From NCBI GenBank assembly GCA_947626035.1, contig CANQQR010000001.1:13096-77095 (forward strand): a stretch of DNA of 64,000 nucleotides, written 5' to 3'. The notes beneath the pieces were generated by a model. That model was not told the DNA's origin and made no database searches. It worked only from the letters and a program-made list of their open reading frames with translations. The stretch comes from an uncultured Bacilli bacterium. Its GTDB lineage: Bacteria; Bacillota_I; Bacilli_A; RF39; UBA660. Below are positions 1 through 15,916 of the stretch, in pieces. The first letter of the stretch is position 1. Each line of letters begins with the position of its first letter. The position numbers and the translations under genes are program-made.

Positions 1-179
1 GAACTTTATCAAGAAAGATACCCTGATATGTCAGTTGCCCATCTAGGACACGCAAAAGCAGTCCTGAGTTTTCTGGAAAAGATAGTTTAAAAATGACGAG
101 AGGCGGGCTTCCCGCCCTCTCTTTCTTATGCTCAGCGCGTCTTCAGTCCAGACGCGCCGCAACTCATTATTTAGTAATA

Positions 180-452: not shown

Positions 453-503
453 GTATTTACAAGGTAAGAAAAACAAAAAACAAATTTTAAGGAGGGTTTT
501 ACA

Positions 504-923
504 ATGGCAGACAAGAAAGTTACTAAGAAGGATCGTTACAATGTACTGATTGAGATGGTGCAGGCGTCGGAACTGGAGAATAAGGACGAGTACGTCGAAT
601 TCCTGAAGCATGAAATCGAGCTTTTGAGCAACCGCTCTAGCAAGTCCGGCTCTACCCCGATCCAGAAAGCAAACAATCGTCTGATTGCTCTGTTAAAGGA
701 TATCCTGGGCGAGCAGGAAAGTCCGGTGACTATCACCAACCTGATGGCAGATCCGCGTCTTGCAACCTACACGGTAGAGAAAGCTGACGGCGTTGTCACC
801 GAGGTTATGACCAACCAGAAGCTGTCCAGTCTGATGAAGAAGCTGGTGGACGCGCACGAGGTTGACAAGACCATCATCAAGAAGGTCGCGTATTTCTCTC
901 TGACCGCGGAGCTGGATGACTAA
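504..923 (+). CDS. Early protein, paralog family A (copy 1 of 3), unknown function
   Basis: Strong promoter and RBS; GC3-rich codon usage unlike flanks; paralogs 4695-5084 and 15462-15866 share motifs QKAN, DPRLATYT.EK, MTNQKL. Confidence 0.6.
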   Translation: MADKKVTKKDRYNVLIEMVQASELENKDEYVEFLKHEIELLSNRSSKSGSTPIQKANNRLIALLKDILGEQESPVTITNLMADPRLATYTVEKADGVVTEVMTNQKLSSLMKKLVDAHEVDKTIIKKVAYFSLTAELDD

Positions 924-934
924 TCCCCACTACT

Positions 935-961
935 GAGAGGGCGCAAGCCCTCTCTTTTTTA
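935..961 (+). terminator. Rho-independent terminator after 504-923
   Basis: GC hairpin gagagggcgcaagccctctc followed by a T-run; a second GC hairpin follows at ~965-1000. Confidence 0.55.
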
Positions 962-1113
962 TTTGGCGGTTCGCCATGGGGCGCGGCGAACCGAGTTTCA
1001 GAACTTAGTAATATTGCACAATTTTCGTGGATCAAGTTTGTGCAGTATGCCTATTGTATTTTCTCCTGAAATAGTGTATACTTAGACTATCAAATGAAAG
1101 AGAGGCAATTAAT

Positions 1114-1326
1114 ATGAAAATTGAAAACAAAGTAAAAAACACTGTGGAATTTCAGAACTTACACATCGGCGATGTCTTTATGTTTAATGCAAAGTATCTC
1201 ATGGTGACAGATACTGACCGCCTTGTTGTTGACTTAAGGGATGGTGCTTGCTATTATCCAGAGGATTTAGGTATTGATGGCTATGATGAAGTGCCTAAAG
1301 TTGAATGTACCTTATTGGTAGAATAA
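1114..1326 (+). CDS. Hypothetical small protein
   Basis: ORF with upstream operator-type promoter. Confidence 0.4.
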   Translation: MKIENKVKNTVEFQNLHIGDVFMFNAKYLMVTDTDRLVVDLRDGACYYPEDLGIDGYDEVPKVECTLLVE

Positions 1327-1337
1327 GGAGGGATGAT

Positions 1338-1712
1338 ATGCTTGCTTTTTACAATGCTGAGTATATTACATACCATAATGATAAAGAATTAGGACGGGAG
1401 TGGGCGAAGGGTTGCTGTGAAGAAAATGAACTTGATAATGAAATTATTGATATTTCATGGGATAATTTGACAGAGATGTATCGCCGCTATGGACTGGCTT
1501 TATATTTTAATTATATGAATCTTAAAAAAGGACGCATTGTATGTCCATTTGATAGCTTTAAAACTATTAAAGAATGGAAAGAACCATTAAATATTAGACT
1601 TGTAGCAAAATATGAGACAGAAGAACCTAAAATAATTGATGTATTAAAATGGCACGACCAAAAGCAAGCAATTCAATATTTGCAGGAAAGAAGTTTAAGT
1701 ATTCGGGGCTAG
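1338..1712 (+). CDS. Hypothetical protein
   Basis: ATG at 1338 preceded by AAGGAGGG RBS; terminator hairpins at 1718-1770. Confidence 0.45.
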   Translation: MLAFYNAEYITYHNDKELGREWAKGCCEENELDNEIIDISWDNLTEMYRRYGLALYFNYMNLKKGRIVCPFDSFKTIKEWKEPLNIRLVAKYETEEPKIIDVLKWHDQKQAIQYLQERSLSIRG

Positions 1713-1889
1713 AGCAATCTAGCCCTCTCTTTCTATGCTCGGCTCGCGATGCACCACCGCGAGCCGCAATTCTCTTTTTAGTAATGTTGCACAAAAATCT
1801 TGTGGCATTTTTGTTACTTTTGCCTATTGAGCTTTTTCCTTAAATAGTTTATACTAGTATCATCAAGAGAGAGAAAGAGAGGTAATGAA

Positions 1890-2060
1890 ATGAGACACCA
1901 CCTGCTGTATTTTAAAACAATTAAAGAATGGATTGACCTGTGGGAATATTCATTCTGGTATGAACGAATTGGAATTGTTATAGGGATTATACTTGATATA
2001 ATCTTATATGTGTTATTTATTATATTCTTTGCTATCGTTATTAAGGAGGTAATGAAATGA
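1890..2060 (+). CDS. Small hydrophobic membrane protein (57 aa), not in supplied ORF track
   Basis: ATG at 1890 after GAGAGG RBS; one predicted TM helix; stop overlaps start of next gene (ATGAAATGA). Confidence 0.35.
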   Translation: MRHHLLYFKTIKEWIDLWEYSFWYERIGIVIGIILDIILYVLFIIFFAIVIKEVMK

Positions 2061-2512
2061 AGGTTTTAGTCTTTGATATGGACGGTACAATCGCTGACCT
2101 GTACGGCGTTGAAGGTTGGTTAGAAGCTCTCAGAAGTTTCGATGAATCGCCCTATACCGACGCCCGCCCGCTTTATGATATGGAAAATCTCAATATGATA
2201 TTGCAGGCTCTTAAAAATCAGGGATGGCACATAGTGGTAACAAGCTGGTTATCAAAATGTAGCAATAAGGAATATGATAACAAGGTGCGGAAAGCAAAAA
2301 AAGACTGGCTCGATAGATATGAGTTCCCATACAATGAAATACATTTCATTAAGTATGGAACGACAAAAGCAAATTGTACTAGGAAGCTTGGCGGTCGCCA
2401 GATTTTAGTGGATGATAATGAAAAAGTACGGGCGGGCTGGACTCTTGGTGAAACAATCGACGCTAATGAAGATATAATAAGAGAATTAATAAATTTAATA
2501 AAGGAGGACTAA
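2057..2512 (+). CDS. HAD-superfamily phosphatase, 5'(3')-deoxyribonucleotidase-like
   Basis: N-terminal motif VFDMDGTIADL (HAD motif I, DxDGT); size and layout fit NT5C-type nucleotidases. Confidence 0.5.
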   Translation: MKVLVFDMDGTIADLYGVEGWLEALRSFDESPYTDARPLYDMENLNMILQALKNQGWHIVVTSWLSKCSNKEYDNKVRKAKKDWLDRYEFPYNEIHFIKYGTTKANCTRKLGGRQILVDDNEKVRAGWTLGETIDANEDIIRELINLIKED

Positions 2513-2515
2513 GAA

Positions 2516-2743
2516 ATGAAAGTAGTAGTAAGATTTGAAGGTAAGAGAGAGGTTGATATTCCAGACGCATGGCTGGAATATGATGCAATGGGTGAGGGTC
2601 ATCCGTACTATGCACCCTACGACCTACGAGATGATGCACCAGTTGTTATGGGCTCACATTCCATTCTATTACCGCCAGAATACGCAAATTTGGAGGTATG
2701 CGCAATCGAAGACCCGGACGGTAAGACAATTGCAGAGTGGTAG
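2516..2743 (+). CDS. Hypothetical small protein
   Basis: ORF with AGGAGG RBS; terminator 2744-2767. Confidence 0.4.
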   Translation: MKVVVRFEGKREVDIPDAWLEYDAMGEGHPYYAPYDLRDDAPVVMGSHSILLPPEYANLEVCAIEDPDGKTIAEW

Positions 2744-2767
2744 GAGCGCGGTTTCCGCGCTCTTTTT
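2744..2767 (+). terminator. Rho-independent terminator
   Basis: Hairpin gagcgcggtttccgcgctc plus T-run. Confidence 0.55.
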
Positions 2768-2996
2768 ACTTGGCGGTGCGTTTTGGCACAAAACGCACCG
2801 AGTCTCTAAATCTTCTATTGTACCACATTTTTCGCTCCCTGTCAATAGGCAAATTGCACAAACCTGGAGATCCCGATTTGTGCAATATTTTTGAAAAAAG
2901 TTCTTGACCTTTTTGTAGGTGTGTGATAGAATATACTTGTAAGGAAGATAACACCTTACATAAATAAAAAACCTATATGAAAGAAGGAATGAAAAC

Positions 2997-3974
2997 ATGA
3001 AAAAGAAGTACTACTTAACACTGGACACTGAAACCGCAACTTTACCTTTTGCTAACTCTATGTGTAAAACCGCAAAAGAGAAGCAGAAAATCGCTATCGC
3101 GAAACCGCTTGTATATGATATTGGATGGACTATAACCGATAGGGCAGGGAATGTTATAAGGAATGAAAACTACCTGATTCAGGAAACATTCTTTGTACCC
3201 AACGTATTCAATACCGCATATTATAAAGACAAAAGACCTATTTACATGAAGTTACTGGAGGAAGGAAAGATTAAAACCGCTTGCTGGAATGACATTATAA
3301 AGGTACTAATTAAAGATTTAGATAGTTGCGATTTAACCACCGCCTATAATGCCTGTTTTGATTTTAAGAAAGCTATTCCCTTTACAGAGCGATATATTTA
3401 TCATCTGTATCGCGCAGACTATAACGAGTGGGAAACAATGCAAAAGAGAATGTGTAAGAAAATCCTTGCGGGGCAGGATGAAAGCGAAAACCCGGACTAC
3501 TTAACGCCAGTATTCAAAATCCGCGGGCGCGAATATCCGATAGCTGATTTGTGGGGTATCTCATGTGAAAGACTTATCAACGCTAACAAGTACCGCGATT
3601 ATTGCTTACAGAATAGACTTCTTACGGCAAGCGCGTTATACTTCAAGACAAGCGCGGAAACTAGCTTTCAGTACCTTATGAAAAATCATGAATTTGTGGA
3701 AGATCATACGGCATTGAGTGACGCGCAAATCGAAGCACAAATTCTTACAAAAGCACTCAAGAAGGGCAAGGTAGAACCGCAGATAAATGCGTTCCCATTC
3801 CGCGACCTGGGCACAACTTATGAATACGTATTAAAAAAGCCCAAATATAAACAAGTGGTGATTGACCTACTGAATGAATATTATGAAGCTTATTCACTTG
3901 AGCATGGTCAAAACGCATGGATAACAAAAATCGAAAATATCTTGCGAACGTTAGAACATGGGGACGAGGGTTGA
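2997..3974 (+). CDS. DEDDh-type 3'-5' exonuclease (DnaQ/RNase T-like)
   Basis: Exo I motif LTLDTETA near N-terminus and Exo III-like HTALSDAQ motif; 325 aa. Confidence 0.5.
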   Translation: MKKKYYLTLDTETATLPFANSMCKTAKEKQKIAIAKPLVYDIGWTITDRAGNVIRNENYLIQETFFVPNVFNTAYYKDKRPIYMKLLEEGKIKTACWNDIIKVLIKDLDSCDLTTAYNACFDFKKAIPFTERYIYHLYRADYNEWETMQKRMCKKILAGQDESENPDYLTPVFKIRGREYPIADLWGISCERLINANKYRDYCLQNRLLTASALYFKTSAETSFQYLMKNHEFVEDHTALSDAQIEAQILTKALKKGKVEPQINAFPFRDLGTTYEYVLKKPKYKQVVIDLLNEYYEAYSLEHGQNAWITKIENILRTLEHGDEG

Positions 3975-4000
3975 AACCCTCTCCCCAAAGGAGGAAAAAC

Positions 4001-4375
4001 ATGACAAGAGAACAAGAGATACAACACCACATGAAGCAATTGAAAATTTCAAGAGAAGAAGCAGAACAGCTTTACAAGGATGATCACAGCGATACCGTGC
4101 TTCCAGAGGTTGCGGAAATGGAAGTAAAAGCAAAGAAAATGAAACGTAGGTATGAGGGTGATACTAAAGCGCGGGTTCCCGCTCAACGCGAAAAGAAGCT
4201 AGACCCTGTCAAAGTTGAGGTAATCCAAACGATCGCTAAGAACTTGACCAGATGCGTACTAGATGACAAGCTGGGCGAACCGCACGACATTGATATCGTG
4301 AACCCACAGCGTGAAGTTAAATTCAAGATTGGGTCAGTAAACTACTCGGTCACTCTGACCCGACACAAGGGATAG
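4001..4375 (+). CDS. Hypothetical protein, paralog of 5186-5593
   Basis: ATG at 4001 after AAAGGAGGAAAAAC; shares ...R(E/D)EA.Q...D and ...FKIG..Y..L(T/I)R(H/K)K C-terminal motifs with 5186-5593. Confidence 0.45.
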   Translation: MTREQEIQHHMKQLKISREEAEQLYKDDHSDTVLPEVAEMEVKAKKMKRRYEGDTKARVPAQREKKLDPVKVEVIQTIAKNLTRCVLDDKLGEPHDIDIVNPQREVKFKIGSVNYSVTLTRHKG

Positions 4376-4611
4376 GCGTAAGCCTATCCCTTTAAGCATC
4401 GGCCGGCACGCGATGAACCGCCGCGTGCCGAATCTTCCATTATACCATACCTTGGCAACTTTGTCAAGCGAAATTTTCAACAACTTTGCCCAAACTTTTA
4501 TCCCAAAATTTGTGCATTTTTACTCTTGTGCTTTCCGCGCCTATGTGATATACTAGTATCATCAAGAGAGAGAAAGAGATTTAAAAAGCCAAATAAAAAA
4601 TTAAAAAACTC

Positions 4612-4640
4612 TTGACAAACAAAAGATAAAGTGATATAAT
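4612..4640 (+). promoter_or_regulatory. Consensus promoter for family-A paralog 2
   Basis: TTGACA 4612-4617, TATAAT 4635-4640, same leader as 424-500. Confidence 0.6.
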
Positions 4641-4694
4641 AAAGCTACAAGGTAAGAAAAAACAAAAATAAATTTTTAAAGGAGGAATTAAGTT

Positions 4695-5084
4695 ATGACA
4701 AAGAAGGAAATGTTTGAAAAGGTAATTGCACTGGTGGAGTCCGCAGAAGTTGAGAACAAGGATGAAATTCTGGAGAAGCTTAACCATGAGGTGGATATGC
4801 TGAACAGTAGAAAGAGTTCGTCCAAACCTACCGCGGTTCAGAAGGCGAATGACGTCCTTATGAAGCTTGTTAAGGAGATCCTGGCGGAACAGGAGAATCC
4901 TGTGTCTGTAACTGAACTCATGCAAGATCCGCGCCTTGCTACGTATACCATTGAAAAGGAAGATGGCCCCTCGGTTCAGTATATGACGAACCAGAAGCTT
5001 ACCTCTATCCTGGGTAAACTGTGTGACGTTAAGGAGGTTGTGAAAACGGTAGAGAAAAAGAAGTCCTACTTCTCTATTGCCTAA
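4695..5084 (+). CDS. Early protein, paralog family A (copy 2)
   Basis: See 504-923; same promoter and leader architecture. Confidence 0.6.
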   Translation: MTKKEMFEKVIALVESAEVENKDEILEKLNHEVDMLNSRKSSSKPTAVQKANDVLMKLVKEILAEQENPVSVTELMQDPRLATYTIEKEDGPSVQYMTNQKLTSILGKLCDVKEVVKTVEKKKSYFSIA

Positions 5085-5185
5085 TGGGTGGGTGGGGTAT
5101 ATCCCTACCCACCTAAAATCAAAAATTTGATTTTAAAAAATTTTTTTGATATAATTATTATATCAAAAGAAAAGAGGGAATTAGC

Positions 5186-5593
5186 ATGACATATAAGCTA
5201 GGGAAACGCACAATCAGGATTCCAGATTCAGATATTGCGCGGTCGGTGGAAAAGTTAGGCATAACCAGAGATGAAGCAATCCAGATGTGGTTAGAGGATG
5301 AGGGATACCTGGAGAATGAAGAGCAAGAAGCCTTGGAGCGGAAAGCTAAAGAAAATCGCATAACCGCAACTATTCATCAGGCAAGCGCAGTCGATGTTCA
5401 AAAGAAAACTCAAAAGGAGAGAGTGAGAAAAGAAGATCCAACAAAGGAGCTAATTATAGCAAAAACCGCGGAATTTCTTAAAGAATATGCGGAAAATGTT
5501 ACAATAATTAACGTTGGAAAGCTGATTTCATTCAAAATTGGCGATGATGATTATGAATTTAACCTAATTCGCAAGAGAAAACCTAAAAAATAG
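5186..5593 (+). CDS. Hypothetical protein, paralog of 4001-4375
   Basis: ORF with GAGGGAATTAGC RBS; paralogy by shared motifs. Confidence 0.45.
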   Translation: MTYKLGKRTIRIPDSDIARSVEKLGITRDEAIQMWLEDEGYLENEEQEALERKAKENRITATIHQASAVDVQKKTQKERVRKEDPTKELIIAKTAEFLKEYAENVTIINVGKLISFKIGDDDYEFNLIRKRKPKK

Positions 5594-5647
5594 CACGGGC
5601 GGGCGCTAAAAAGCGCCCAAAACCTCGCAAAATGGAGGAAAATAACA

Positions 5648-5872
5648 ATGTATCATGTATTTATTGATGCTGGCGGTGAAGTGTTATGTAAAACTGTGGA
5701 TGATGCTATTGACTATGTAAGAAATTGGGTTAGTGAAAGAGGAGCCTTAAATAGTCTGACTTTTGACTTCTCTAACTGGGATATGAAATATATTGTTTTT
5801 CACATAGATCATGATGGTTATTATTGGCTAGGATGTATTGAGCTTTTACCTATTTGGAATAAGGAGGAATGA
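5648..5872 (+). CDS. Hypothetical small protein
   Basis: ORF with GGAGG RBS. Confidence 0.35.
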   Translation: MYHVFIDAGGEVLCKTVDDAIDYVRNWVSERGALNSLTFDFSNWDMKYIVFHIDHDGYYWLGCIELLPIWNKEE

Positions 5873-5875
5873 TAC

Positions 5876-6100
5876 ATGGATTTTATTTGGTATCTTAACT
5901 GGGAGAATGAATCAGTAGCATTTTCTACTAAAAAGCAGGCTATTGAATATGTAACTAAGAGAAGCGAAGATGCAGATTGGGGCTTGCAGTGGGATGAATC
6001 ATTGGAAGATTACATTAGTTTTATTTCAACTTGGTACGATGGTGGAGAAGAAACTTATGTTATTAAAGCTGTGCCATTCAATCCAGACCCGGAGAGCTAG
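5876..6100 (+). CDS. Hypothetical small protein, weakly similar to 5648-5872
   Basis: ORF coupled to upstream gene; terminator hairpin 6108-6140. Confidence 0.35.
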   Translation: MDFIWYLNWENESVAFSTKKQAIEYVTKRSEDADWGLQWDESLEDYISFISTWYDGGEETYVIKAVPFNPDPES

Positions 6101-6276
6101 ATTCGCCGGGTCCTGATCTGGCATCAGGACCCGCTTTCCGCATTTTCACCTAGCATATGCAATTTTTCCCTGGAATTTTTGATCCTCCCCATAGCGCGAT
6201 TCATCCCGAATCAATCTCACCCCTCAACACCTCGCAAGATCCACCTTACCTACCTACCTCTTCCCAACCTGACCCC

Positions 6277-6740
6277 ATAACGCCACAGACCCACAACCGC
6301 CGCTCTTATAGCAAAAAATTGGTTCCTCCCGCCCCATTTTTTTATTGCTCTAACTGAGTTATTTTAACACCAAACTGCTACATTATTAAGTTTACGAGTA
6401 TTTCTCCACATTTTATATAACTTGCTTCAGAGAAGCTCGTATAACGCCACAGACCTACAACCGCCGCCTATAGCAAAAAATAGACCTCTCCGCTAACTCT
6501 TTTATTATAGTCTAACTAAGTTAGCGTAAGCCTAAACTGCTACATTATAACATTTCCGAGTCTTTCTCCATTCGAAAATCTTCTTGCCTCAGGCGGGGTC
6601 CCTCGCCCTATGACGGCCACATACCCGCAAACCGCGTTTTCTAAGTCCCTCCCGCGGCTCTTTTATTATAGTCTAACTAAGTTAATTTAACCCCATTTTG
6701 CTACAAATATACCCCGACGAAACTTTGTAAGTCCAAATTT
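6277..6740. repeat. Approximately three tandem direct repeats of ~164 bp (iteron-like), non-coding
   Basis: Unit ataacgccacagacc(c/t)acaaccgccgc...ctaactaagtt...aaactgctacatta... starts at 6277 and 6441; a partial third copy lies at ~6615-6735. Confidence 0.6.
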
Positions 6741-6874
6741 TTTCTCAGCTCAGATTGGCAGCTGAATTAAAATTTAAATACTTTATTGACTTTTGAAAAA
6801 AATTATGATATAATATATACATAAAAGATAGGAGATATTTTACTATTCACTTTTGTGTAAAGGAGAGCTGACTA

Positions 6875-7284
6875 TGGATATTAATAAGACTATTGCTGAG
6901 ATGATGAAAGATATGTCTGAGGATGACGTTAAGGCGGCGGTTAATAAAGCCATTGCCGCGGAGAGGATTCGCAGAGAAGCGGAGGCCGAAGCTAAAAAGA
7001 AAGCATCAGCTGCCTCAGAGCGGGATAATGTAGCTCAGTTACGGCGCATTGCCGCGAACACTATGTCTGGCTATATGAAGGCCGCGATGCCCAAGATTTT
7101 TGGTGATATTGACAATCTTGCGGACCAGATTGAGGAAGCGTTCATTGAGACCGAGGAGGAGTTTAACAGAACCAGAACTATGTTCGATATTATCATGGAC
7201 GCTCTTGAGGATGAGGACAAAGACAGTTCCAAAGAAACTGAAGATGATGATGTGATTGCAAACTTTTTAAGGCACCTCAGTTGA
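6875..7284 (+). CDS. Hypothetical acidic coiled-coil protein
   Basis: ATG 6875 after AAAGGAGAG RBS; consensus late-type promoter at ~6780-6815. Confidence 0.4.
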
Positions 7285-7675
7285 GAGGTGCCTTAGATGC
7301 AGTACATTGAAAAACGAATAAGGAGCTAGGGTAAGGGTAACGATGAACCTGCAAAGGATGAGGAAGACGGTGCCTGCCCACCACACTTCCTCAATCTTTA
7401 ATAATTTTAATTATTTCTGCTTTCACACTTCCTTAATCTTTACAATTTTAAGTAATCTTTATTCATCTTAAAAGATTTTTTTAACATCTTTTCAACCTTC
7501 CGCACCTTTTATCTACATTCATACGTATAATCTCTATATTCTTTTTAATAATTATGACACTCCTCCATGTTATAAATATTATACCCTATTCTTCTATTCT
7601 ACCTCTTTTATCAAAATAAAATTCAAAAACCAGTTTTGGAAATCATTTTTCAAATTTAAAAATGAAATTTTCAAA

Positions 7676-8074
7676 CTACCTCTGCCCATTTTCCACCTCC
7701 ATCAGTGGTTCAACACTTCCCATACCACTCAGCCTATCTGCTGCCCACTTCAAAATCTCCGTTATACTATGATCATCCCACATAGACTCATCAAACTCAG
7801 CAGATGCCTTCGCAACAACTTCCTTCTCCTTGTCACTCAAGGGCCTAATTTCACCATCTACATTATCTTCAACAACTTCATTTTCCTTATCCTTAAAACT
7901 CAAAAATACACTATCCTTCTGCTCTTGTGTTAATGGCTCAACCTTACCACCTAACACTTCACTAATCAAATCAGCAAAACGCGGCTTGCTTTCCGCAATT
8001 CCGCCAAAACTCTTCTTCTCTTCTGACATCCATAAACCTCCTAACAAAACTCCGCGGCTTGAGGTTACTTTCAA
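7676..8074 (-). CDS. Hypothetical protein
   Basis: ORF on minus strand; first gene of a minus-strand block. Confidence 0.35.
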   Translation of the reverse strand: MKVTSSRGVLLGGLWMSEEKKSFGGIAESKPRFADLISEVLGGKVEPLTQEQKDSVFLSFKDKENEVVEDNVDGEIRPLSDKEKEVVAKASAEFDESMWDDHSITEILKWAADRLSGMGSVEPLMEVENGQR

Positions 8075-8196
8075 ATCGAGGAATGAAAGCGCGAAGCGCT
8101 TGAATGACGAAGATTTGAAAGTAACCGAATGAGATATGAATTATATCGAGGAATGAAAGCGCGAAGCGCTTGAATGACGAAGATATAATTCATATC
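8063..8196. repeat. Twin long hairpins with an identical 34-nt loop-region motif (core shown in evidence) on different 15-bp stems
   Basis: Hairpin A 8063-8126 has stem ggttactttcaaatc/gatttgaaagtaacc; hairpin B 8133-8196 has stem gatatgaattatatc/gatataattcatatc; shared core aggaatgaaagcgcgaagcgcttgaatgacgaag. Confidence 0.6.
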
Positions 8197-8204
8197 GAAC
8201 TACT

Positions 8205-8280
8205 TAATAAAAGTTAAATATATAATATATATATTATATATATAATATATATTATAAGTTAAATAATAAAAGTTTTATAA
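8205..8280. repeat. Long AT-only palindrome (TA-repeat dyad)
   Basis: aaagttaaatatataatatatatattatatatataatatatattataagttaaataataaaagtt reads nearly the same on both strands. Confidence 0.55.
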
Positions 8281-8356
8281 TAGCGATTTAAAAGGTCTTC
8301 TATTTATATATTATCTAAATTTTTAACATCTGCTTGGAGAATCCATCAGAAAATTT

Positions 8357-8962
8357 TTAACACGCCGCTCTCTGAGGTCTATTAGTCACGCTCATAATCA
8401 CTATCTCTCTATGGTCAACATCAGTTTGAACCAACTTATACTCAATAAAATGCAATTCTTGAAGTACATATAAAATATTATTAATAACATGATTGTTACT
8501 TGTAGTGGTTGCCGCGATTCCAATAAAAGACTTCATTTGATTCATAGTAACAATAAAAGACTGTTCTTTATTAGCTATATATCTATTTAATAAATATACA
8601 TAAATACTAATAGTATATTGGCCTAAAGTATCTGTAAGCATTTCTAAAGTATCCAATGGTATCAATGCAGCATCTGCCTTATCAAGATAATTCAATCTGT
8701 AATACTTAGGTCTCACAGGATCTTCTTCAACCAAGCCAATCTTCAGCAAATCTTTAAACCTAGTAGAAGCAGTTTGTCTACTAATCTTCATCTTTTCACC
8801 AAGTGCTACATAATTAATTAATTTCTTTTCTACATACCTTCCGCCATCAAGTAATACTGACTCTTGCTGTAAAATTCCATAAAGTAAATCATTGTATTTC
8901 TTGTCAGCAGTATATTTTTTTGTATCAGGAATTTGTCTTGAATTACTCTGAATTGTTAGCAT
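8357..8962 (-). CDS. Putative DNA-binding protein (winged-helix-like)
   Basis: Segment ISRQTASTRFKDLLKIGLVEE resembles an HTH; function otherwise unknown. Confidence 0.35.
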   Translation of the reverse strand: MLTIQSNSRQIPDTKKYTADKKYNDLLYGILQQESVLLDGGRYVEKKLINYVALGEKMKISRQTASTRFKDLLKIGLVEEDPVRPKYYRLNYLDKADAALIPLDTLEMLTDTLGQYTISIYVYLLNRYIANKEQSFIVTMNQMKSFIGIAATTTSNNHVINNILYVLQELHFIEYKLVQTDVDHREIVIMSVTNRPQRAAC

Positions 8963-9164
8963 ATGTTTTCATCTCCTTTCTATTCTTTGATATTATACTT
9001 AAAAATTAAAATATAACGATTTAACTTTAACGCCCAACCATAAAAACTTTAACATATTTATTAAGAATAGAAAAAATTAAACATATTTGCTATCATCAGA
9101 AAAATTCTAACATATCTTGCATTTTAAGAAAAACCTTAACACGATTTTTTAACATTGACTAAAA

Positions 9165-9764
9165 TTAAATATTAATATTCCACTCTGGTCGGAAAAGCTG
9201 TCTATAGTACGCTTCTCTATCAAATCTATTTACTTTATCGCATTTTTCAAGAATAGTAAAGTTGTCTTCTGTAAGAAAAGGTCTCTTCTGACAGTGCTGC
9301 TGGATCCGCTTGTCTAAATGTTCAGTAGATCCAACATACATAATCTTATTATTATAAATAATAGCATAAACATAATTAGTAGAATCATATTTTTTTACGT
9401 CTTTCTTTATAGAGCATAAAGATGTCCTAGATACCCCAATTAATTTACATATTTCGCTATCCGATTTTGCAGGGAATCTATTCTTACATATATGATAAGC
9501 TATATACACAGAGGAATCTTTAAATATATGATCTCTAATAAACTGTAACTCTTCTGTTGTCAAATCAAAGGGATCATTTACTATAATATTTTCATTGGAA
9601 TCTTCAGATATTATTTCATCATCAACCAACTCTTTATAATATTTAGCTAACGATTGTCTACATTTACCAACTATTTTTGATAAACTACTATAATTAATTT
9701 TTTTCATTGTATGCTGATGTAATAACAAAAATAAATATACATCATTGGTTAGTAAATACCACAT
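9165..9764 (-). CDS. HTH plus GIY-YIG nuclease-domain protein (free-standing homing-endonuclease-like)
   Basis: C-terminal YVYAIIYNNKIMYVGSTEHLDKRIQQH... matches the GIY-YIG core; N-terminal HTH-like segments; strong RBS TAAGGAGA before ATG at 9764. Confidence 0.5.
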   Translation of the reverse strand: MWYLLTNDVYLFLLLHQHTMKKINYSSLSKIVGKCRQSLAKYYKELVDDEIISEDSNENIIVNDPFDLTTEELQFIRDHIFKDSSVYIAYHICKNRFPAKSDSEICKLIGVSRTSLCSIKKDVKKYDSTNYVYAIIYNNKIMYVGSTEHLDKRIQQHCQKRPFLTEDNFTILEKCDKVNRFDREAYYRQLFRPEWNINI

Positions 9765-9934
9765 TTGTTAAAATCTCCTTATCTACTTTTATAAGTTATA
9801 AAAAAATAGGTCAGAAAAATTTTAACATCTTGACCATCTTATAACTTTTCTTCCGACCCCAATCTCTTCATTCGATTTACTTATCATACTTTCGACATCT
9901 TTATATTTGTCCAAAAATTCCAACAAAACAAACT

Positions 9935-10255
9935 TTACCTAGGCATATCACTAAATGACCAATGCTCACCTTCACCATCAGTTAACATTAAGTAACCATA
10001 GTCAATTAACTCATCATAAAAACTCTCAAGTTCCTCCTCAGTCACATTACAGAACTTCATAATCTCTTCATTATCAAGCACATAATCATTATCATCTTCC
10101 AAAACGCCCAAACACATCCATACCTTAAAACCTTCTGTTGATAAAAGCTTCATAGCTATCTTAGTAGCCTGATCGTCAAATATTACTTCTCTCTTATCAT
10201 CACTGAACGCGGTTTGCAGGTTAATGGCGTCTTTGACCTTACTCTTTTTACCCAT
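9935..10255 (-). CDS. Hypothetical acidic protein
   Basis: ORF with GGAGGTGAAGATAG-type RBS on minus strand. Confidence 0.4.
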   Translation of the reverse strand: MGKKSKVKDAINLQTAFSDDKREVIFDDQATKIAMKLLSTEGFKVWMCLGVLEDDNDYVLDNEEIMKFCNVTEEELESFYDELIDYGYLMLTDGEGEHWSFSDMPR

Positions 10256-10271
10256 CTATCTTCACCTCCTC

Positions 10272-10562
10272 TTAATCCTGATACCCGCAGCAGTTATATC
10301 CCTTCTGCCACTCCTCAAAAGACAAAGGACTCTTCTCATATCCACTCTTCAGATACTTCAAATACTCCTTATACTCAGCATCTTCTGCGTCTTCCTTCTC
10401 CAACGCTTCTATCCTAGCCCTCAACATAGCAATCTGACCGTCAAGCCTACCAATCTTATCATCATAATCAACAGCTAAAGTACCAAGAATACCAGCTAAA
10501 CTAATCAAAGCCAAAATAATAAAAACATAAATCACACGGTTACCCTCCCTATAAGACGTCAC
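10272..10562 (-). CDS. Small membrane/coiled-coil protein
   Basis: N-terminal TM helix then a heptad-like segment LDGQIAMLRARIEALEKE. Confidence 0.4.
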   Translation of the reverse strand: MTSYREGNRVIYVFIILALISLAGILGTLAVDYDDKIGRLDGQIAMLRARIEALEKEDAEDAEYKEYLKYLKSGYEKSPLSFEEWQKGYNCCGYQD

Positions 10563-10566
10563 AGGT

Positions 10567-10722
10567 TCAGTTCAAGTCTTCATAACCACGAACCTGCATT
10601 ATTAAATATGTCACTTGGTTCTCAAGCTTTTCAACTCTACTATCCAACTGACCTAACTTCCAACCAATAAAATAACATAATCCAACTAAACAAACACCAC
10701 TAAAAATACCTAATACAATCAT
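10567..10722 (-). CDS. Small membrane/coiled-coil protein, possible paralog of 10272-10562 (not in ORF track)
   Basis: 52-aa ORF with the same TM-then-coiled-coil pattern; weak RBS. Confidence 0.25.
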   Translation of the reverse strand: MIVLGIFSGVCLVGLCYFIGWKLGQLDSRVEKLENQVTYLIMQVRGYEDLN

Positions 10723-10808
10723 CGCGGTTTCCGGGTCTATGGATGTCAGTGAGGCAACTATAAAACGCCACTAACCCACAGCCCGCGTCTCCTTTCTTTC
10801 TCTTGATG

Positions 10809-10873
10809 AGAGTGAATGCTTGCATTCACTCTTTCTATACTTATATTATAACAAAAATTCTCATCTTTGTCAA
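10809..10873 (-). promoter_or_regulatory. Minus-strand consensus promoter (TTGACA...TTATAATAT) plus leader hairpin agagtgaatgc-N3-gcattcactct
   Basis: Reverse complement of 10845-10873 gives TTGACAaagatgagaatttttgTTATAATATA; hairpin at 10809-10832. Confidence 0.5.
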
Positions 10874-10975
10874 CTCCTCACCCGCAAACCGCATACACTT
10901 GACAAATTTTAAAAATTTTGTTACAATTAAAATGTCCAAAGAAAAACAAAAGGAAAGAAAGGTGCTAGATCTATT

Positions 10976-11206
10976 ATGACAATACGAGAATTAATTAACA
11001 AATTAACAGTATTAAGTAATGTTCCTGATCTATCTCTTGATAGTGAAATATCTATCTTCAATAGTTCTATATACATAGGACAACCAAATAAATACTTTAT
11101 CATGATAGATCCATACGATGACAATACCGCATATGGCTATTTAGTACCATTAACACCAAAGGGAGAAAATGATGACATTAACACAAGAGCAAAAAGAAGC
11201 AATTAG
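10976..11206 (+). CDS. Hypothetical small protein
   Basis: ORF downstream of promoter at ~10895-10930. Confidence 0.35.
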   Translation: MTIRELINKLTVLSNVPDLSLDSEISIFNSSIYIGQPNKYFIMIDPYDDNTAYGYLVPLTPKGENDDINTRAKRSN

Positions 11207-11420
11207 TAAATTAACAGACGAGGAAAGAGAAGTTATTGCGGCCTTGGGCAAAATTGCTAAATATACGAAACATCGCAACCTATGTGACGGCCCAAATGGT
11301 ATGTGTATGTTCTGGAATCCTAACGACCGCATTTGTATATTAAGAACCTACGATTGCCCAGAAGCCTGGATTAAAATGTTAGGATTCTACGCAGCTATAT
11401 TAGAGGATGAAGATACATGA
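11169..11420 (+). CDS. Hypothetical small Cys-containing protein
   Basis: ORF overlapping the previous gene by 38 nt. Confidence 0.4.
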   Translation: MMTLTQEQKEAISKLTDEEREVIAALGKIAKYTKHRNLCDGPNGMCMFWNPNDRICILRTYDCPEAWIKMLGFYAAILEDEDT

Positions 11421-11477
11421 TTCATCCTTTATTTTTTAAAAAAATTTTGTTATAATATATATAGAAAGTTAAGGGAG

Positions 11478-11657
11478 ATGGTAAAAATGACAAATTATAA
11501 AGCAAGTGTTTGGGTCATTGATAAGCACGGCGAAGAAAGAGTTCTTGACGCCTGCACAGTCGCAGAAAACACAAGAGAAGCAATCAACAAAATGAAAAAT
11601 TTCTTAGCTAAGTATGATGACAAAGTTATCCAGATCACTATTTGGGAGGAGAGATGA
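11478..11657 (+). CDS. Hypothetical small protein (59 aa, below ORF-track cutoff)
   Basis: ATG 11478 after AAGGGAG RBS and a consensus promoter at ~11425-11462. Confidence 0.35.
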   Translation: MVKMTNYKASVWVIDKHGEERVLDACTVAENTREAINKMKNFLAKYDDKVIQITIWEER

Positions 11658-11660
11658 GCT

Positions 11661-11960
11661 ATGACGCACTGGGAATTAATTGATGAAGCGGTTGCCCTTG
11701 CCGCAGAAATTGAAGAAGCTATGGGAATTGAAGAGAACAACGCATCTATCAAAGCGCGGGTTCTCGATTGGTATAACCATACCGATGTATGTGACGCAGA
11801 GATGCTGGCCGCCGCATCAATGCATGGTTCATTTCAGTCTGTTGATTATAATACGCTTTGTATATGGCACGATGAATATTTCTTTCCTATGAACTGCCAT
11901 GCAAACATCTTCTCTATTGGAGAGATTGAAGATTCCTACCGTGATAAATTATGGAGGTGA
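11661..11960 (+). CDS. Hypothetical protein
   Basis: ORF coupled to upstream gene. Confidence 0.4.
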   Translation: MTHWELIDEAVALAAEIEEAMGIEENNASIKARVLDWYNHTDVCDAEMLAAASMHGSFQSVDYNTLCIWHDEYFFPMNCHANIFSIGEIEDSYRDKLWR

Positions 11961-11964
11961 GTAA

Positions 11965-12165
11965 ATGAAGTTCTTAACTAAGTTTGCAACAATTCTCGCG
12001 TTCTGCCTATGTATTTATATGAGCATATCAACATTTATGATGACTGGCATTATCCTTAATGCTATTTTTCCCTTCATCCCTTTATTGATGACATTCGTAG
12101 GTAGTACAATTGGACTTATTATAATTTCACTTATTATCTTCGCAGTTTTTATTAAGGAGGAATGA
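11965..12165 (+). CDS. Small membrane protein (two TM helices)
   Basis: Hydrophobic 66-aa ORF. Confidence 0.4.
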   Translation: MKFLTKFATILAFCLCIYMSISTFMMTGIILNAIFPFIPLLMTFVGSTIGLIIISLIIFAVFIKEE

Positions 12166-12168
12166 GTT

Positions 12169-12735
12169 ATGACAAAGAGTGAGTGGATGACTAAAAATGG
12201 TTTTGATGAAAATGGCCTCACATGGTGCGTCTTTGGAGATAATACCTACTCAATAAAAGACGAATTAAAGGCGCTTGGATGCAAGTATCATCCAATCCTT
12301 CAGTGGCACTCACCTGAACCACTCGATGTACCAACTGGTTATGGGATGTTTTCTCTTAGATTGACAGACGTCGCGGTATGGGATGAGATTAACCAAGCCT
12401 TTTTCTTTACTGAGGATGGTATTACCGCGATAGATGCTAAGTTCGCATCGTACAATGGAACCAGTCTATCACAATTTGTAGGCAAGATTGGTGAGCACCT
12501 TATAGCCACGACCGCGCTTCTCCGCAGTCATCAACTCTATAATTGTCAGTATGGACTTACTAATATTTACACTTTTTCTATTGGTGATGACATTCTTGTT
12601 TGGGTCACATCAACCTCGCCAGATATTTCAGTAGGTGATGTTGTAAGTCTATCTGGTACTATCGTCAAACATGAAGTCCGTAAGGGAACAAAGACAACCC
12701 GCATTTCAAGATGCAAAGTATGTGCAATAGGTTGA
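12169..12735 (+). CDS. Hypothetical protein
   Basis: ORF with AGGAGG RBS. Confidence 0.45.
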   Translation: MTKSEWMTKNGFDENGLTWCVFGDNTYSIKDELKALGCKYHPILQWHSPEPLDVPTGYGMFSLRLTDVAVWDEINQAFFFTEDGITAIDAKFASYNGTSLSQFVGKIGEHLIATTALLRSHQLYNCQYGLTNIYTFSIGDDILVWVTSTSPDISVGDVVSLSGTIVKHEVRKGTKTTRISRCKVCAIG

Positions 12736-12824
12736 GGTCATTCCTCAACCTTTATTTTTTATAAAAATTATGATATAATAATAGTATGATAAAAAAAGAA
12801 GACGAACGAAATAGGTGGTGCTTA

Positions 12825-13498
12825 TGACTGACAAAGAGATTTTAACATTATTTAAAGATTGTGATTTTGACGATTTAAATGAAGATAATTTTAATCAAAA
12901 TGTCTTAAGTCGCTTACCCGCGGGGTTCCGCTATGATTACTTCTATGGGGCAACTAAATTAGTCCTCATACCCGCAAACCGCGATTTTGTCATTAAGATG
13001 CCATATAAGGGGACTAACATGGAGTGCTGCGAGGGAGCTAATTTTGATATTTACGGTAACCCGCGCTCTCATAGCTACGATCATTGCGCGAGAGAATTAA
13101 TTCTCTACCATGAAGCTAAAAACTCTGGTGTTGCACCAATTCTCTTGAAAAACCACTATGTTGGAGAAGTCAACGACGAAGCTATTTATACACAAAAGAT
13201 AGCGCAGACTTTTGATGACTACTATGATACTCCATTCTTCTTCAATGAGTACTCAATTCACTCACCAAAAGAGATAGAAGCCATGAAAGATAGTTATCAA
13301 AGGAGTCCATACCGTTACAACCAGTATGCAGAGCGGTATAACGCTTGGCTAGTAGATGTACACATCTATTATGGTGAGAAAATGTTCGCGGCAATTCTTG
13401 ATTTTATTAATAACTACATCGAAGATCTGCACGCAAATAACATTGGTTATGCTAATGATAGACCAGTTATATTGGATTATGCGGGTCTCTTGATATAA
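12825..13498 (+). CDS. Hypothetical protein
   Basis: ATG 12825 downstream of consensus promoter ~12755-12790. Confidence 0.45.
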
Positions 13499-13537
13499 GA
13501 CGCCATGTACACAGCTAAATCAGAAAGGAGCGAGGTT

Positions 13538-14008
13538 ATGAGCATTGGAATTGACGAAGCATTACATGCTATTAAGAGCATCACAGAAGCACATGAAAAT
13601 AACATACAATACTTAGTAGAAGAAAATAAGAAGTTGCGGGATGAGCATTATAAAGACACGGAATTGGCAGATATGAAACGTCAATTAGACAGCCTTAAGG
13701 AAGCCTACTACCGCGGGTTTCCGCTTACAGAGCAAGAAAAAGCACAAATTGATCAATGGCAAAAGATCCATGACACTAATGAACATAATAATCCTACGGG
13801 ATACCATGGAGTGAGCGGCGGTGGTTTTGCTTATATGTTTTATCCTACTGCTATTGGTATTCTTACTAAGTGTCGTTGTAATATCTGTCATAAAAGAGCG
13901 TTGAATTATGCTGTTACCAATAGCATGGTAAAAAATGAATTTGATTTAGCTATGTATAATGAGTATATGCGTGATCACAATGCACTCATTGAATTTGAAG
14001 ATTACTAA
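13538..14008 (+). CDS. Hypothetical protein with C-terminal Cys cluster
   Basis: ATG 13538 after AAAGGAG; motif CRCNICHKRAL. Confidence 0.4.
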   Translation: MSIGIDEALHAIKSITEAHENNIQYLVEENKKLRDEHYKDTELADMKRQLDSLKEAYYRGFPLTEQEKAQIDQWQKIHDTNEHNNPTGYHGVSGGGFAYMFYPTAIGILTKCRCNICHKRALNYAVTNSMVKNEFDLAMYNEYMRDHNALIEFEDY

Positions 14009-14019
14009 GGAGGTGTACC

Positions 14020-14217
14020 ATGGCTAAAACACGCGAAATAGTTTGTAAATTTTATGTTTGCAAAGGTCAGTGTGAACGCGGTCGATTGGCGGATTTCTAT
14101 GGTCAATGCCAACATTGCAACCTCTATGAACCTCTCAAAGGCGCACGCCCGCGCAGAAAAAACCTCCGCCGCGAGAAGAAAGAGAAAATAGCTAACGACA
14201 GAAGGGAATGGGAATGA
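14020..14217 (+). CDS. Small zinc-ribbon-like protein
   Basis: CKFYVCKGQCERG...CQHCNLY has 7 Cys in 65 aa. Confidence 0.4.
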   Translation: MAKTREIVCKFYVCKGQCERGRLADFYGQCQHCNLYEPLKGARPRRKNLRREKKEKIANDRREWE

Positions 14218-14411
14218 AAATGTTTGAAGGACGCAAATGGCATAAGAAATGGAAAGAAATGAGTAAAATCATTGATGAATATATTGAAGAATACCAACTT
14301 TGGGCGGATACATTTGAAGAGAAGAAAAAAGAAGATATGTTGAATCCATATAATCAGGCAGTGTGCGCATTGATCGACATAAAGAACGAATTTGAATCGC
14401 TTGAAAAATAA
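14208..14411 (+). CDS. Hypothetical small protein
   Basis: ORF overlapping the upstream stop. Confidence 0.35.
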   Translation: MGMKMFEGRKWHKKWKEMSKIIDEYIEEYQLWADTFEEKKKEDMLNPYNQAVCALIDIKNEFESLEK

Positions 14412-14431
14412 AAAAGAAAGGAAACACACAC

Positions 14432-14677
14432 ATGGATCATTTATTAATTGTAATAGATATGCAAAATGATTTTATCACTGGCTCTCTTGGTTCACCAGAA
14501 GCTAGAGCTATTGTACCACACGTTCATAATTTAATTGAAGGTTGGGTTGGCCCAATTATCTACACAAAAGATACTCACGGTGATAATTACTTAGATACTC
14601 TTGAGGGCCAGAAGTTACCAGTCCCGCTATTAAAGCTAAGATTGATGTATTACATGAGATTAATCAGTTTAAGCTAA
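14432..14677 (+). pseudogene. Truncated isochorismatase/nicotinamidase-family fragment (N-terminal ~68 aa only)
   Basis: LLIVIDMQNDFITGSLGSPEA...IIYTKDTH is the classic cysteine-hydrolase N-terminus; the ORF stops after 81 aa, before the catalytic Cys region; a C-terminal-like remnant sits in another frame at 14680-14745. Confidence 0.5.
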
Positions 14678-14734
14678 AGTCTATGGAAGCATATAGTCCA
14701 GCTATTTATTTTAAATGTTCATGGGAGGAAGAAT

Positions 14735-14768
14735 AGAGCAGGGTACATACTCTGCTCTTTATTTTTTA
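14735..14768 (+). terminator. Rho-independent terminator
   Basis: Hairpin agagcagggtacatactctgctct followed by ttatttttt. Confidence 0.55.
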
Positions 14769-14824
14769 AAAAATTTTTGTTATAATATATGTATAAGAAA
14801 GAGTAAATGCAAAACATTTACTCT
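14769..14824 (+). promoter_or_regulatory. Consensus phage promoter (TTTTTAAAAAATTTTTGTTATAATATATGTATAAG) with leader hairpin agagtaaatgc-aaaa-catttactct (14800-14824)
   Basis: TATAAT at 14781-14786; the same promoter family has more than 25 copies in the window; hairpin conserved at 21176-21200, 27926-27951 and 10809-10832. Confidence 0.6.
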
Positions 14825-14843
14825 TAAATGAGAGAGGAGAGAT

Positions 14844-15041
14844 ATGAATATGTTTTATAAATATGTAGTAGAGTTTTATGATGAAGAAGAACTTGATGAT
14901 AATACTGCACATGGCTTGGTATATGGCGAAAATATGGCGGAGGCCGCGCAGAAAGTACTTAACTATTATGATACTGTGTTCCATATCGAAATAGAAGAAA
15001 GCGATTTTGATTTAGTATACGAGCTTGAAGAGGAGGACTAA
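14844..15041 (+). CDS. Hypothetical acidic protein
   Basis: ORF with GAGAGGAGAG RBS. Confidence 0.4.
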   Translation: MNMFYKYVVEFYDEEELDDNTAHGLVYGENMAEAAQKVLNYYDTVFHIEIEESDFDLVYELEEED

Positions 15042-15043
15042 TC

Positions 15044-15262
15044 ATGGCAATTAATCCATACTATCCTTACATGGCTGAAGCGGAAGGATATCTTGATACA
15101 AGAGAAAGTAAGATTAGACGAGTCATCGCTGATGTAAAACGCTATCCTGACCCCGTAATGTCTCAGTCTGCTTTTGAGACTGTGTGTAAACTTAATGGAC
15201 TTAATCCATACAGTCTCTCAGAGCGCGAGCTCCGCAGAATTAAAACCGCGGTTGGTGGCTGA
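15044..15262 (+). CDS. Hypothetical small protein
   Basis: ORF coupled to upstream gene. Confidence 0.4.
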   Translation: MAINPYYPYMAEAEGYLDTRESKIRRVIADVKRYPDPVMSQSAFETVCKLNGLNPYSLSERELRRIKTAVGG

Positions 15263-15461
15263 CTCTTGAAAACTTAAAAAATTTTTGTTATAATATACTT
15301 ATCAAAGGGAAAGAAAGGTAATGTTGGTATAGTGAGCTGGACCGAAGAGTTGTTTTAACTGGGTCGGTTAGACGCCACTTGAAAACTTAAAAAATTTTTG
15401 TTATAATATCTATGTAAACAAACAAACAATATTTATTTATTTATGAAAAGGAGAAATTATC

Positions 15462-15866
15462 ATGGCAGACGTAAAGATGACTAAGAAGGACTGGTTTATG
15501 GCGATTCGTGAGCAGATTGAGACTTCCGACTGGGAGATGGCCGATGCTGCTCTGGAGTGGATTGACAAGCAGGTTGAGTCTCTGAATAACAGAGCTACCA
15601 AGGCTGCTGAGAGAGCCGCTGATAAGAGGGCGGAAGGGGATGCTCTGCGTGAGATCGTTGCTAGTATGGTCACTGACGAGTGGCAGACTGGTGAGCAGAT
15701 TACCGCTGCGGTAGTCGCGACTGGTGAGGATGTAACCAAGGCTAAGGTCGTTGCAAGGCTGTCTCAGTTGGTTAAAAACCATACTGTGGAAAAGGGTTCC
15801 ATCAAGGATGATGGTCGTCGGATTATTGCTTACCGCAATTACACTGGCGAAGCTGAAGAGGAGTAA
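15462..15866 (+). CDS. Early protein, paralog family A (copy 3, most divergent)
   Basis: MADVKMTKKDWF... parallels MADKKVTKKDRY... of 504-923; preceded by two tandem consensus promoters (15270-15305 and 15385-15420). Confidence 0.55.
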   Translation: MADVKMTKKDWFMAIREQIETSDWEMADAALEWIDKQVESLNNRATKAAERAADKRAEGDALREIVASMVTDEWQTGEQITAAVVATGEDVTKAKVVARLSQLVKNHTVEKGSIKDDGRRIIAYRNYTGEAEEE

Positions 15867-15916
15867 TTAGATAAGGGTGGTATTAAACCACCCTTATTAT
15901 TTTAGGAGGAATATAA

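Follow-up and report, generated by a model that had tools for sequence, protein, structure and literature searches.

A 64,000-nucleotide stretch of contig CANQQR010000001.1 (GenBank assembly GCA_947626035.1, positions 13,096 to 77,095, from an uncultured Bacilli bacterium; hereafter the window) is part of a phage genome of ~140 kb. It encodes three proteins, P1, P2 and P3, that are paralogues in a very large uncharacterised phage family of small winged-helix (WH) proteins. We propose, with moderate confidence, that they are abundant early DNA-binding proteins with an architectural or regulatory role. The exact P1 protein is on record on contigs of up to 139,594 bp (NCBI, ENA, Logan). We observe homology, a predicted fold, signals for expression, biased codon use, a large family, its copy number and its synteny, and infer early timing, abundance, DNA binding, oligomerisation and an architectural role.

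Three paralogous genes

504-923, plus strand: P1, a 139 amino acid WH family protein of the P1 type, G+C content at third codon positions (GC3) 0.69
4695-5084, plus strand: P2, a 129 amino acid paralogue of the P1 type, GC3 0.57
15462-15866, plus strand: P3, 134 amino acids, of a distinct conserved subfamily with recognition helix DVTKAKVVARLSQLVK, GC3 0.55

The initial annotation described these genes as divergent paralogues. All three open reading frames (ORFs) are real, and so is their homology. P1 and P2 share 53% identity (E 2e-49), P1 and P3 share 26% identity across the full length (E 2e-11), and P2 and P3 align at the N-terminus only (E 2e-7). Two non-circular tests with hidden Markov models (HMMs) gave the same result: a P1-type model built without P3 finds P3 at E 4e-15, with the next window ORF at E 1.9, and a P3-type model built without the window copy finds P1 at 1e-11 and P2 at 1e-9. 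The two subfamily profiles align with 99.7% probability in hhalign, in a comparison where the P1-type profile contained the window P3. The window contains no fourth copy.

The motifs QKAN, DPRLATYT(V/I)EK and MTNQKL, which had been ascribed to all three proteins, are present in P1 and P2 but P3 has none of them. DPRLATYT is part of a lineage-specific beta-hairpin insertion. P3 represents a separate, well conserved subfamily (recognition helix DVTKAKVVARLTQLVK, mean column identity 53%) that has its own syntenic slot downstream of the gene at 12815-13498.

Family size and distribution

An exhaustive profile search returned 4,432 representatives (50% identity clusters) at E<=1e-3 and 2,283 at E<=1e-10, mostly 113-150 amino acids long. 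Domain fusions were ruled out for the longer members, whose extra length is due to acidic tails or mis-called starts. The carriers are large phages (130-200 kb) attributed to gut Clostridia and Enterococcus. As a sample of relatives we used 70 loci from IMG/VR (20 kb each, mostly from contigs of 80-200 kb), which carry 1-5 family copies per locus.

When 50,697 phages were searched by tblastn, using P1, P3, the family consensus and an AT-rich relative as queries, the sole match was MT835855, a faecal contig that carries no annotation; tblastn did not find the family in plasmids. Among genomes, the consensus matched just seven short metagenome-assembled genome (MAG) contigs of gut Clostridia, which are probably mis-binned phage fragments. 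The cultured Enterococcus phage H1 encodes two remote homologues by HMM, H1_103 (E 3e-9) and H1_91 (E 1e-7), both annotated as hypothetical (11232-11902 and 5300-5713 of locus L082). Three tandem near-consensus promoters, TTGCAA-17-TATA(A/C)T, precede H1_103, which sits between HAD and exonuclease genes and also has a terminator. Phage phAss-1 gives a weak HMM match to the family, and an HMM scan of SPbeta from 60 to 110 kb found no homologue.

Expression signals

424-452, plus strand: P1 promoter, TTGACA-17-TGcTATAAT, 12/12, extended -10
453-503, plus strand: P1 leader, A-rich, with an AAGGAGG ribosome-binding site (RBS) at 489-495
935-960, plus strand: P1 intrinsic terminator, GAGAGGGCGCAAGCCCTCTC followed by a T-run
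4612-4640, plus strand: P2 promoter, TTGACA-17-TGaTATAAT, 12/12
4641-4694, plus strand: P2 leader, A-rich, with an AAGGAGG RBS at 4679-4685
5086-5113, plus strand: GC-rich, terminator-like hairpin 3' of P2; the downstream 55 nt fold at -28.9 kcal/mol
15266-15407, plus strand: two tandem P3 promoters (15266-15294 and 15379-15407), TTGAAA-17-TGtTATAAT, 11/12
15448-15453, plus strand: P3 RBS, AAGGAG
15873-15895, plus strand: P3 terminator hairpin, AAGGGTGG-tattaaa-CCACCCTT followed by a T-rich tail

P1 and P2 have the perfect TTGACA-17-TATAAT promoters with a TG element that were initially annotated, and both have AAGGAGG sites. Their leaders had been called identical, which is incorrect: promoter and leader together are 83% identical over 82 nt. 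Each of the three genes has a promoter, an AAGGAG(G) RBS and a downstream hairpin, and each is therefore a monocistronic cassette. No other genes of the region have expression signals as strong as these three.

The same signals are enriched around family genes in the 70 related loci (the p-values are inflated by relatedness among the loci, as discussed below). A perfect TTGACA-17-TGnTATAAT promoter is found within 200 nt upstream of 55% of family genes versus 12.7% of other ORFs (p 7e-25), and 68% of family genes, versus 16% of other ORFs, are followed by a hairpin at least as strong as -15 kcal/mol (p 2e-32). The leaders are typically 45-55 nt long and A-rich, with the 3' end AAGAAAGAGG. The description of these proteins as highly expressed and early is well supported at the level of sequence signals, all of which recur in relatives: promoters of the consensus sigma-A type, A-rich leaders, terminators and host-type codons. 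We predict a very high dosage because of the consensus promoters, the optimised codons and the presence of 2-5 gene copies.

Codon usage

The GC3-rich codon usage noted initially is indeed atypical. P1, P2 and P3 have GC3 values of 0.69, 0.57 and 0.55, compared to a mean of 0.33 (standard deviation 0.09) for window ORFs of about 100 amino acids or more, and do not match the genome-mean usage. They are the top three plausible genes by GC3, as the ORFs ranked between them overlap tRNAs or other genes. In the related loci, 38% of family genes rank first in GC3 within their locus and 62% rank in the top three.

The preference extends to individual amino acids. CTG makes up 67% of Leu codons in the family versus 9% in the background (odds ratio 20, p 5e-15), AAG 82% versus 43%, and CAG 93% versus 43%; the codons GGA, ATA, CTA, CCA and TCA do not occur in the three genes. 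Codons for Phe, Tyr, Ile and Asn favour C over T (odds ratio 3.4, p 2.5e-5, log ratio 1.2), a preference reportedly used by Sharp et al. (2005) as a signature of translational selection. H1_103 and H1_91 likewise favour NNC over NNT (odds ratio 3.3, p 0.001).

The window contains 16 tRNA genes (at 20.3-30.7 kb), and the phage tRNA anticodons are mostly U34 (Leu-TAA, Leu-TAG, Ser-TGA, Pro-TGG, Lys-TTT, Gln-TTG, Thr-TGT and Glu-TTC). The A-ending codons cognate to these tRNAs account for 14% of codons in the family versus 47% in other genes for the same seven amino acids (p 2e-22). The three genes thus appear to be tuned to the host tRNA pool, and the bulk of the phage genes may lean on the phage tRNAs.

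GC3 values this far over the phage mean could also reflect recent horizontal acquisition from a GC-richer genome, with no selection for expression. We give this a very low probability. GC2 of the three genes is low and the deviation is confined to third positions, the bias includes a general preference for C over T at two-fold codons that is also found in Enterococcus phage H1, the phage's own tRNAs serve the very codons that are avoided, and the family occurs in phages only. In dozens of divergent phages, orthologues share the relative GC3 excess, which is gone in some very AT-rich lineages; the bias therefore follows the host and not the gene. Horizontal transfer is an unlikely cause of the excess.

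Predicted fold and conserved residues

The AlphaFold2 (AF2) model of P1 (predicted local distance difference test score, pLDDT, 81) has helices at residues 8-20 and 27-44. A basic linker, modelled with low confidence, leads to a winged helix at 52-133, which has a beta-hairpin insert at 88-101. The P3 model (pLDDT 88) has a helix at 8-21 and then a continuous helix at 27-69 (43 residues) that runs into the winged helix. The winged helix-turn-helix topology H1-S1-H2-H3-S2-wing-S3 is present in the predicted structure. The models suggest dimers or oligomers, because of the two N-terminal helices and the long helix of P3.

In both alignments, T7 and K8 never vary. The nearly invariant residues include E37, L40 and L41 (HEIELL motif), L68, Q105 (recognition-helix start) and K126 (wing), and the consensus motifs SNQK and KK(K)AYF cover the recognition-helix start and the wing around Q105 and K126. 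The recognition-helix motif is (S/T)NQ(K/R) in the P1 type and TKAKVxARL in the P3 type, which has invariant T92, V96, A98, R99 and L100 and nearly invariant K93 and K95. Polar residues of the highest conservation map to the recognition helix and the wing. The winged-helix fold, together with conservation at the N, Q, K and KK positions, leads us to predict nucleic-acid contact. Host takeover, nucleoid binding and anti-defence had initially been suggested as roles; nucleoid or DNA binding would fit best of the three, given the modelled fold and the conserved polar residues on the recognition helix and wing.

The proteins fall outside named families. Pfam-A, NCBIfam and PADLOC gave nothing over threshold for the window proteins (NCBIfam returned no match and PADLOC noise only); the best Pfam match is HTH_52 at 16 bits, compared to a cut-off of 26.6, and Pfam gave no consistent match over 69 relatives. 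P1 weakly matches phrog_19455, a family of unknown function (E 0.0044), and 26 of the 69 relatives also match it (best 1.5e-8); P2 and P3 do not, and the window proteins are probably divergent members. A literature search on phrog_19455 found no papers. There was nothing significant in a PDB sequence search with three profiles and nothing at E<1e-3 in a Foldseek search of PDB, and BFVD returned unnamed viral proteins only.

Several points weigh against abundant DNA-binding proteins as the explanation. The evidence for DNA binding consists of the predicted fold and residue conservation. Winged helices also serve protein-protein and RNA contacts, and some of the matches obtained are of this kind (the C-terminal domains of RPA32 and TFIIF RAP74, and the cullin and ESCRT-II domains). 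None of the window proteins is basic (isoelectric points of 4.9-5.6 for the three window copies, family median 6.6), and many members have acidic C-terminal tails. On the expression side, the locus counts include closely related, non-independent phages and the p-values are therefore inflated, the GC3 excess is missing in one set of very AT-rich relatives, so that the codon signal depends on the host, and the codon shift is gauged against the phage's own genes.

Some of these properties would suit host-takeover inhibitors, in which the winged helix is a protein binder that titrates an abundant host target such as RNA polymerase, sigma-A, a nucleoid protein or a protein of replication or repair. 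Stoichiometric inhibition would match the signals for very high expression, the proteins range from neutral to acidic and have acidic tails, conservation over divergent phages fits a conserved host target, and there are weak matches to protein-binding winged helices (TFIIF RAP74 C-terminal, E 0.02). However, all of these winged-helix matches are insignificant, and conservation is highest at residues that typically contact nucleic acids (N, Q, K, S/T and the KK wing). We consider this role improbable.

Conserved gene neighbourhood

2057-2512, plus strand: HAD-type phosphatase, with weak matches to deoxyribonucleotidase and PNKP-phosphatase families
2997-3974, plus strand: DnaQ/DEDD-like exonuclease, matching phrog_20187 and annotated as exodeoxyribonuclease in Enterococcus phage H1
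4001-4375, plus strand: B135-like paralogue, located upstream of P2, whose longest ORF begins at 3917
5186-5593, plus strand: B135, a conserved 135 amino acid partner gene directly downstream of P2

Protein clustering identified the conserved neighbours of the family in the related loci: B135 is present in 59 of 70 loci, the DEDD-type exonuclease in 65 and the HAD phosphatase in 58. The recurring gene orders are WH followed by B135 (41 of 134 family genes), exonuclease followed by WH (19) and WH followed by HAD (13). Where present, B135 usually sits right behind a WH gene, and it has no match in Pfam, PHROG, NCBIfam or PDB. The fixed synteny with B135, the nuclease and the phosphatase points to an early DNA-handling or host-takeover module.

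A 143 amino acid acidic protein is encoded at 6786-7284 by a GC3-rich gene (0.50) behind an 11/12 extended promoter, which may be a further highly expressed early gene. In relatives, acidic ORFs of ~140 amino acids (a protein cluster found in 45 loci) occupy the equivalent slot after B135; the ORF at 6786-7284 falls outside this cluster.

The gene layout is also compatible with anti-defence factors that are made first and in bulk, either to coat incoming DNA against restriction or CRISPR or to inhibit a defence protein. The family genes are multi-copy, monocistronic and presumably expressed first, a layout comparable to that of T7 Ocr, and the family is restricted to phages (no plasmid match, and in genomes only the short MAG contigs). 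We nevertheless judge this distinctly improbable: there is no match in PADLOC or to known anti-defence families, the fold is not of the DNA-mimic type, and, unlike anti-defence genes, which tend to be patchy and to evolve fast, the family is highly conserved and near-universal in the phage group.

Intergenic modules and a conserved palindrome

Repeated intergenic modules are located at 90-262, 925-1096, 1695-1870, 2735-2935 and 4372-4570. Each is laid out as a terminator hairpin, a GC-rich hairpin (CGGCNCG...CGNGCCG), a 30-bp palindrome (TGCACAA-N15-17-TTGTGCA) and a TTGnnn-17-TATACT promoter. Palindrome copies at 181, 1015 and 2855 lie upstream of TATACT promoters, and there are degenerate copies near 1790 and 4500. 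In related phages the palindrome heptamer occurs 531 times compared to 192 expected. Perfect palindromes are present in at least 25 of the 70 related loci, and palindromes with at most two mismatches in ~50 of 71 sequences (the 70 loci and the window). Both the palindrome and the CGGCNCG hairpin arms recur over dozens of related phage loci, and the intergenic module looks like a conserved regulatory unit.

The family proteins could be sequence-specific transcription switch factors, in the manner of phi29 p4 or T4 MotA, that bind this palindrome upstream of the weaker TATACT promoters and turn delayed-early genes on or off. The palindrome is found upstream of such promoters in the window modules and in many related phages, the recognition helix of the family is conserved much like the palindrome, and P1 and P2 are directly downstream of palindrome modules. 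However, ~30% of family-bearing loci have no palindrome within 20 kb (including L013 with five family copies, L042 with four, L018, L031 and L056) and encode the same recognition helix, so the family is probably not the dedicated binder of the palindrome. A search for covariation between recognition helix and palindrome half-site found none; the helix is the same where the palindrome is missing. A specific regulator also seldom needs 2-5 gene copies, consensus promoters and optimised codons, and there are other helix-turn-helix candidates (for example the minus-strand gene at 8357-8962 of the window, cluster c23, and cluster c9). We regard a switch function as unlikely.

Other non-coding features lie in or beside the modules. 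A GC-rich non-coding stretch at 255-420 separates a module promoter (TATACT at 243-248) from the P1 promoter. It folds with a 12-bp closing stem (minimum free energy -49.8 kcal/mol, z -2.8), has no Rfam match and may be a small RNA. Two minus-strand sigma-70-type promoters (4467-4439 and 2845-2817; one perfect at 12/12 with TG, one 11/12) lie in insertions within two modules, facing the hairpins and the 3' ends of the upstream genes, and may drive short antisense transcripts.

Proposed role in early infection

As DNA-binding architectural or regulatory proteins, P1, P2 and P3 would most likely be made in very large amounts by the host RNA polymerase immediately after infection. Each gene would be a self-contained high-output cassette, which opens with a consensus sigma-A promoter and extended -10 and closes with a terminator; between these lie an A-rich leader free of structure, a strong RBS and codons that the host prefers. 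The proteins are predicted to bind DNA via the conserved recognition helix ((S/T)NQ(K/R) or TKAKVxARL) and the Lys-rich wing, and would act on DNA stoichiometrically, in an architectural or regulatory manner, during early infection. The adjacent B135 is a probable co-actor, and the putative module also encodes the exonuclease and the HAD phosphatase.

A more far-reaching version is that the WH paralogues and B135 form a chromatin-like coat that polymerises on phage DNA as it enters or replicates, or on the nucleoid of the host, as a general early genome-protection or host-silencing device of the whole clade of 130-200-kb phages. We regard this as quite improbable. If true, it would be a protein-based form of DNA shielding, unlike nucleus-forming jumbo phages or DNA modification.

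Comparison with known systems

The closest functional analogues appear to be phi29 p6 and p4, SPO1 TF1, T4 MotB, and T5 A2 with A1 and Dmp, and membership in none of these is supported. Phage phi29 p6 is an abundant histone-like early protein, and p4 is an early dimeric regulator that binds an inverted repeat (PMC3100819, PMC4974454). As proposed for the family, these are small early proteins, encoded by a Firmicutes phage and expressed from strong sigma-A promoters, and they act on DNA architecture and on the early-to-late switch; the inverted repeat bound by p4 upstream of a promoter parallels the 30-bp palindromes here. Unlike p6 and p4, with which there is no sequence or family match, the proteins described here have a predicted winged helix and are encoded in multiple copies by phages of 130-200 kb; their DNA binding is a prediction.

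SPO1 TF1 (HU-type) and SPbeta YonN (HU-like) would likewise be comparable as abundant DNA-binding proteins of large Bacillus phages. Both have the HU fold, whereas the window proteins have a predicted winged helix. There is no match to Bac_DNA_binding or another Pfam family that would indicate HU/IHF membership for the window proteins or the 69 relatives, and the fold is not HU.

T4 MotB is an early, tight, non-specific DNA binder (PMC7827196). It parallels the proposed role of the family, as a phage protein made early that binds DNA non-specifically and contacts host nucleoid proteins, but is unrelated in sequence, encoded by a single copy and from a phage of a Gram-negative host.

The T5 pre-early module includes the DNA-binding protein A2, the phosphoesterase A1 and Dmp, a phosphatase of dNMPs (bioRxiv 10.64898/2026.04.02.716235). 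A2 has ~135 amino acids. Its module is the first to be expressed, has very strong promoters and also encodes an enzyme of the nuclease type and a nucleotide phosphatase, which parallels WH with the DEDD exonuclease and HAD. The enzymes are of different families, and no two-step DNA transfer is known in the window phage group. Homology to A2 was rejected: hhalign of the family profile gave a probability of 0.3% (E 0.19).

Other parallels appear to be architectural. Rok/sRok and the H-NS-like silencers share the layout of an N-terminal helical segment of the oligomerisation type, a linker and a C-terminal DNA-binding domain (a winged helix in Rok). WH_Rok (PF23159) matches one of 69 relatives (E 8.9e-4) and none of the three window proteins, and Rok was not found in the PDB sequence and fold searches. 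Sso10a paralogues are archaeal winged-helix chromatin proteins (PMC4941522). They are small and abundant, with a winged helix, a long dimerisation helix, and several paralogues with different DNA-binding modes. They differ in being archaeal and cellular, with no sequence relationship detected, and the long helix of Sso10a is C-terminal.

The phage and other features of the window

The window has a GC content of ~38%. Other products encoded in it include GyrA, a DnaB helicase, an RNA-ligase-like protein, a radical-SAM protein, a DUF2828 protein and a CHAP/choline-binding lysin. The closest relative of the DnaB is SPbeta YorI (39% identity), and a YonG_N protein or domain is encoded upstream, near DnaB; the phage is distantly SPbeta-like. 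The exonuclease gene ties it to ~140-kb Enterococcus phages and to phAss-1, the group of which has Eubacteriales as predicted hosts (PMC10607447). Megablast of window positions 1-16000 against GenBank phages gave no match, indicating no near-identical phage there.

An Rfam scan found only tRNAs. One tRNA-like gene at 30630-30701 (Rfam tRNA, 48.6 bits) has no ARAGORN assignment; its anticodon stem TCAAT/ATTGA surrounds a 6-nt loop, CTAAGA, with CTA inside. In the distant relative phAss-1, TAG is recoded via suppressor tRNAs (PMC10607447). Right behind the tRNA array, 30770-32266 encodes a 498 amino acid DUF2828/DUF7788 protein with a GC3 of 0.49, relatively high for the phage.

An isochorismatase-like N-terminus (DMQNDF...) at 14432-14677 stops after 81 amino acids and may be a frameshift, split or recoded gene. 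The gap that separates the rightward from the leftward gene block contains a 162-nt tandem repeat of about 2-3 copies (6277-6705). A perfect 40-nt direct repeat is present at 8075 and 8145 (70 nt apart; 8075-8184). These repeats could be iterons or an origin-like region.

Significance

The family would be a non-homologous addition to the known abundant early phage DNA-binding proteins and not a new kind of system. It is very large and lies outside Pfam and all characterised phage protein sets, and its expression signals rank among the strongest in every related phage examined. The codon data suggest a division of labour, in which immediate-early genes would use host-type codons and the remaining genome would use the codons of the phage's own tRNAs. 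The remote homologues in cultured Enterococcus phages (H1_103 and H1_91) make the function of the family directly testable. The family probably performs a central early step in widespread large phages, whose predicted hosts are gut Clostridia and Enterococcus.

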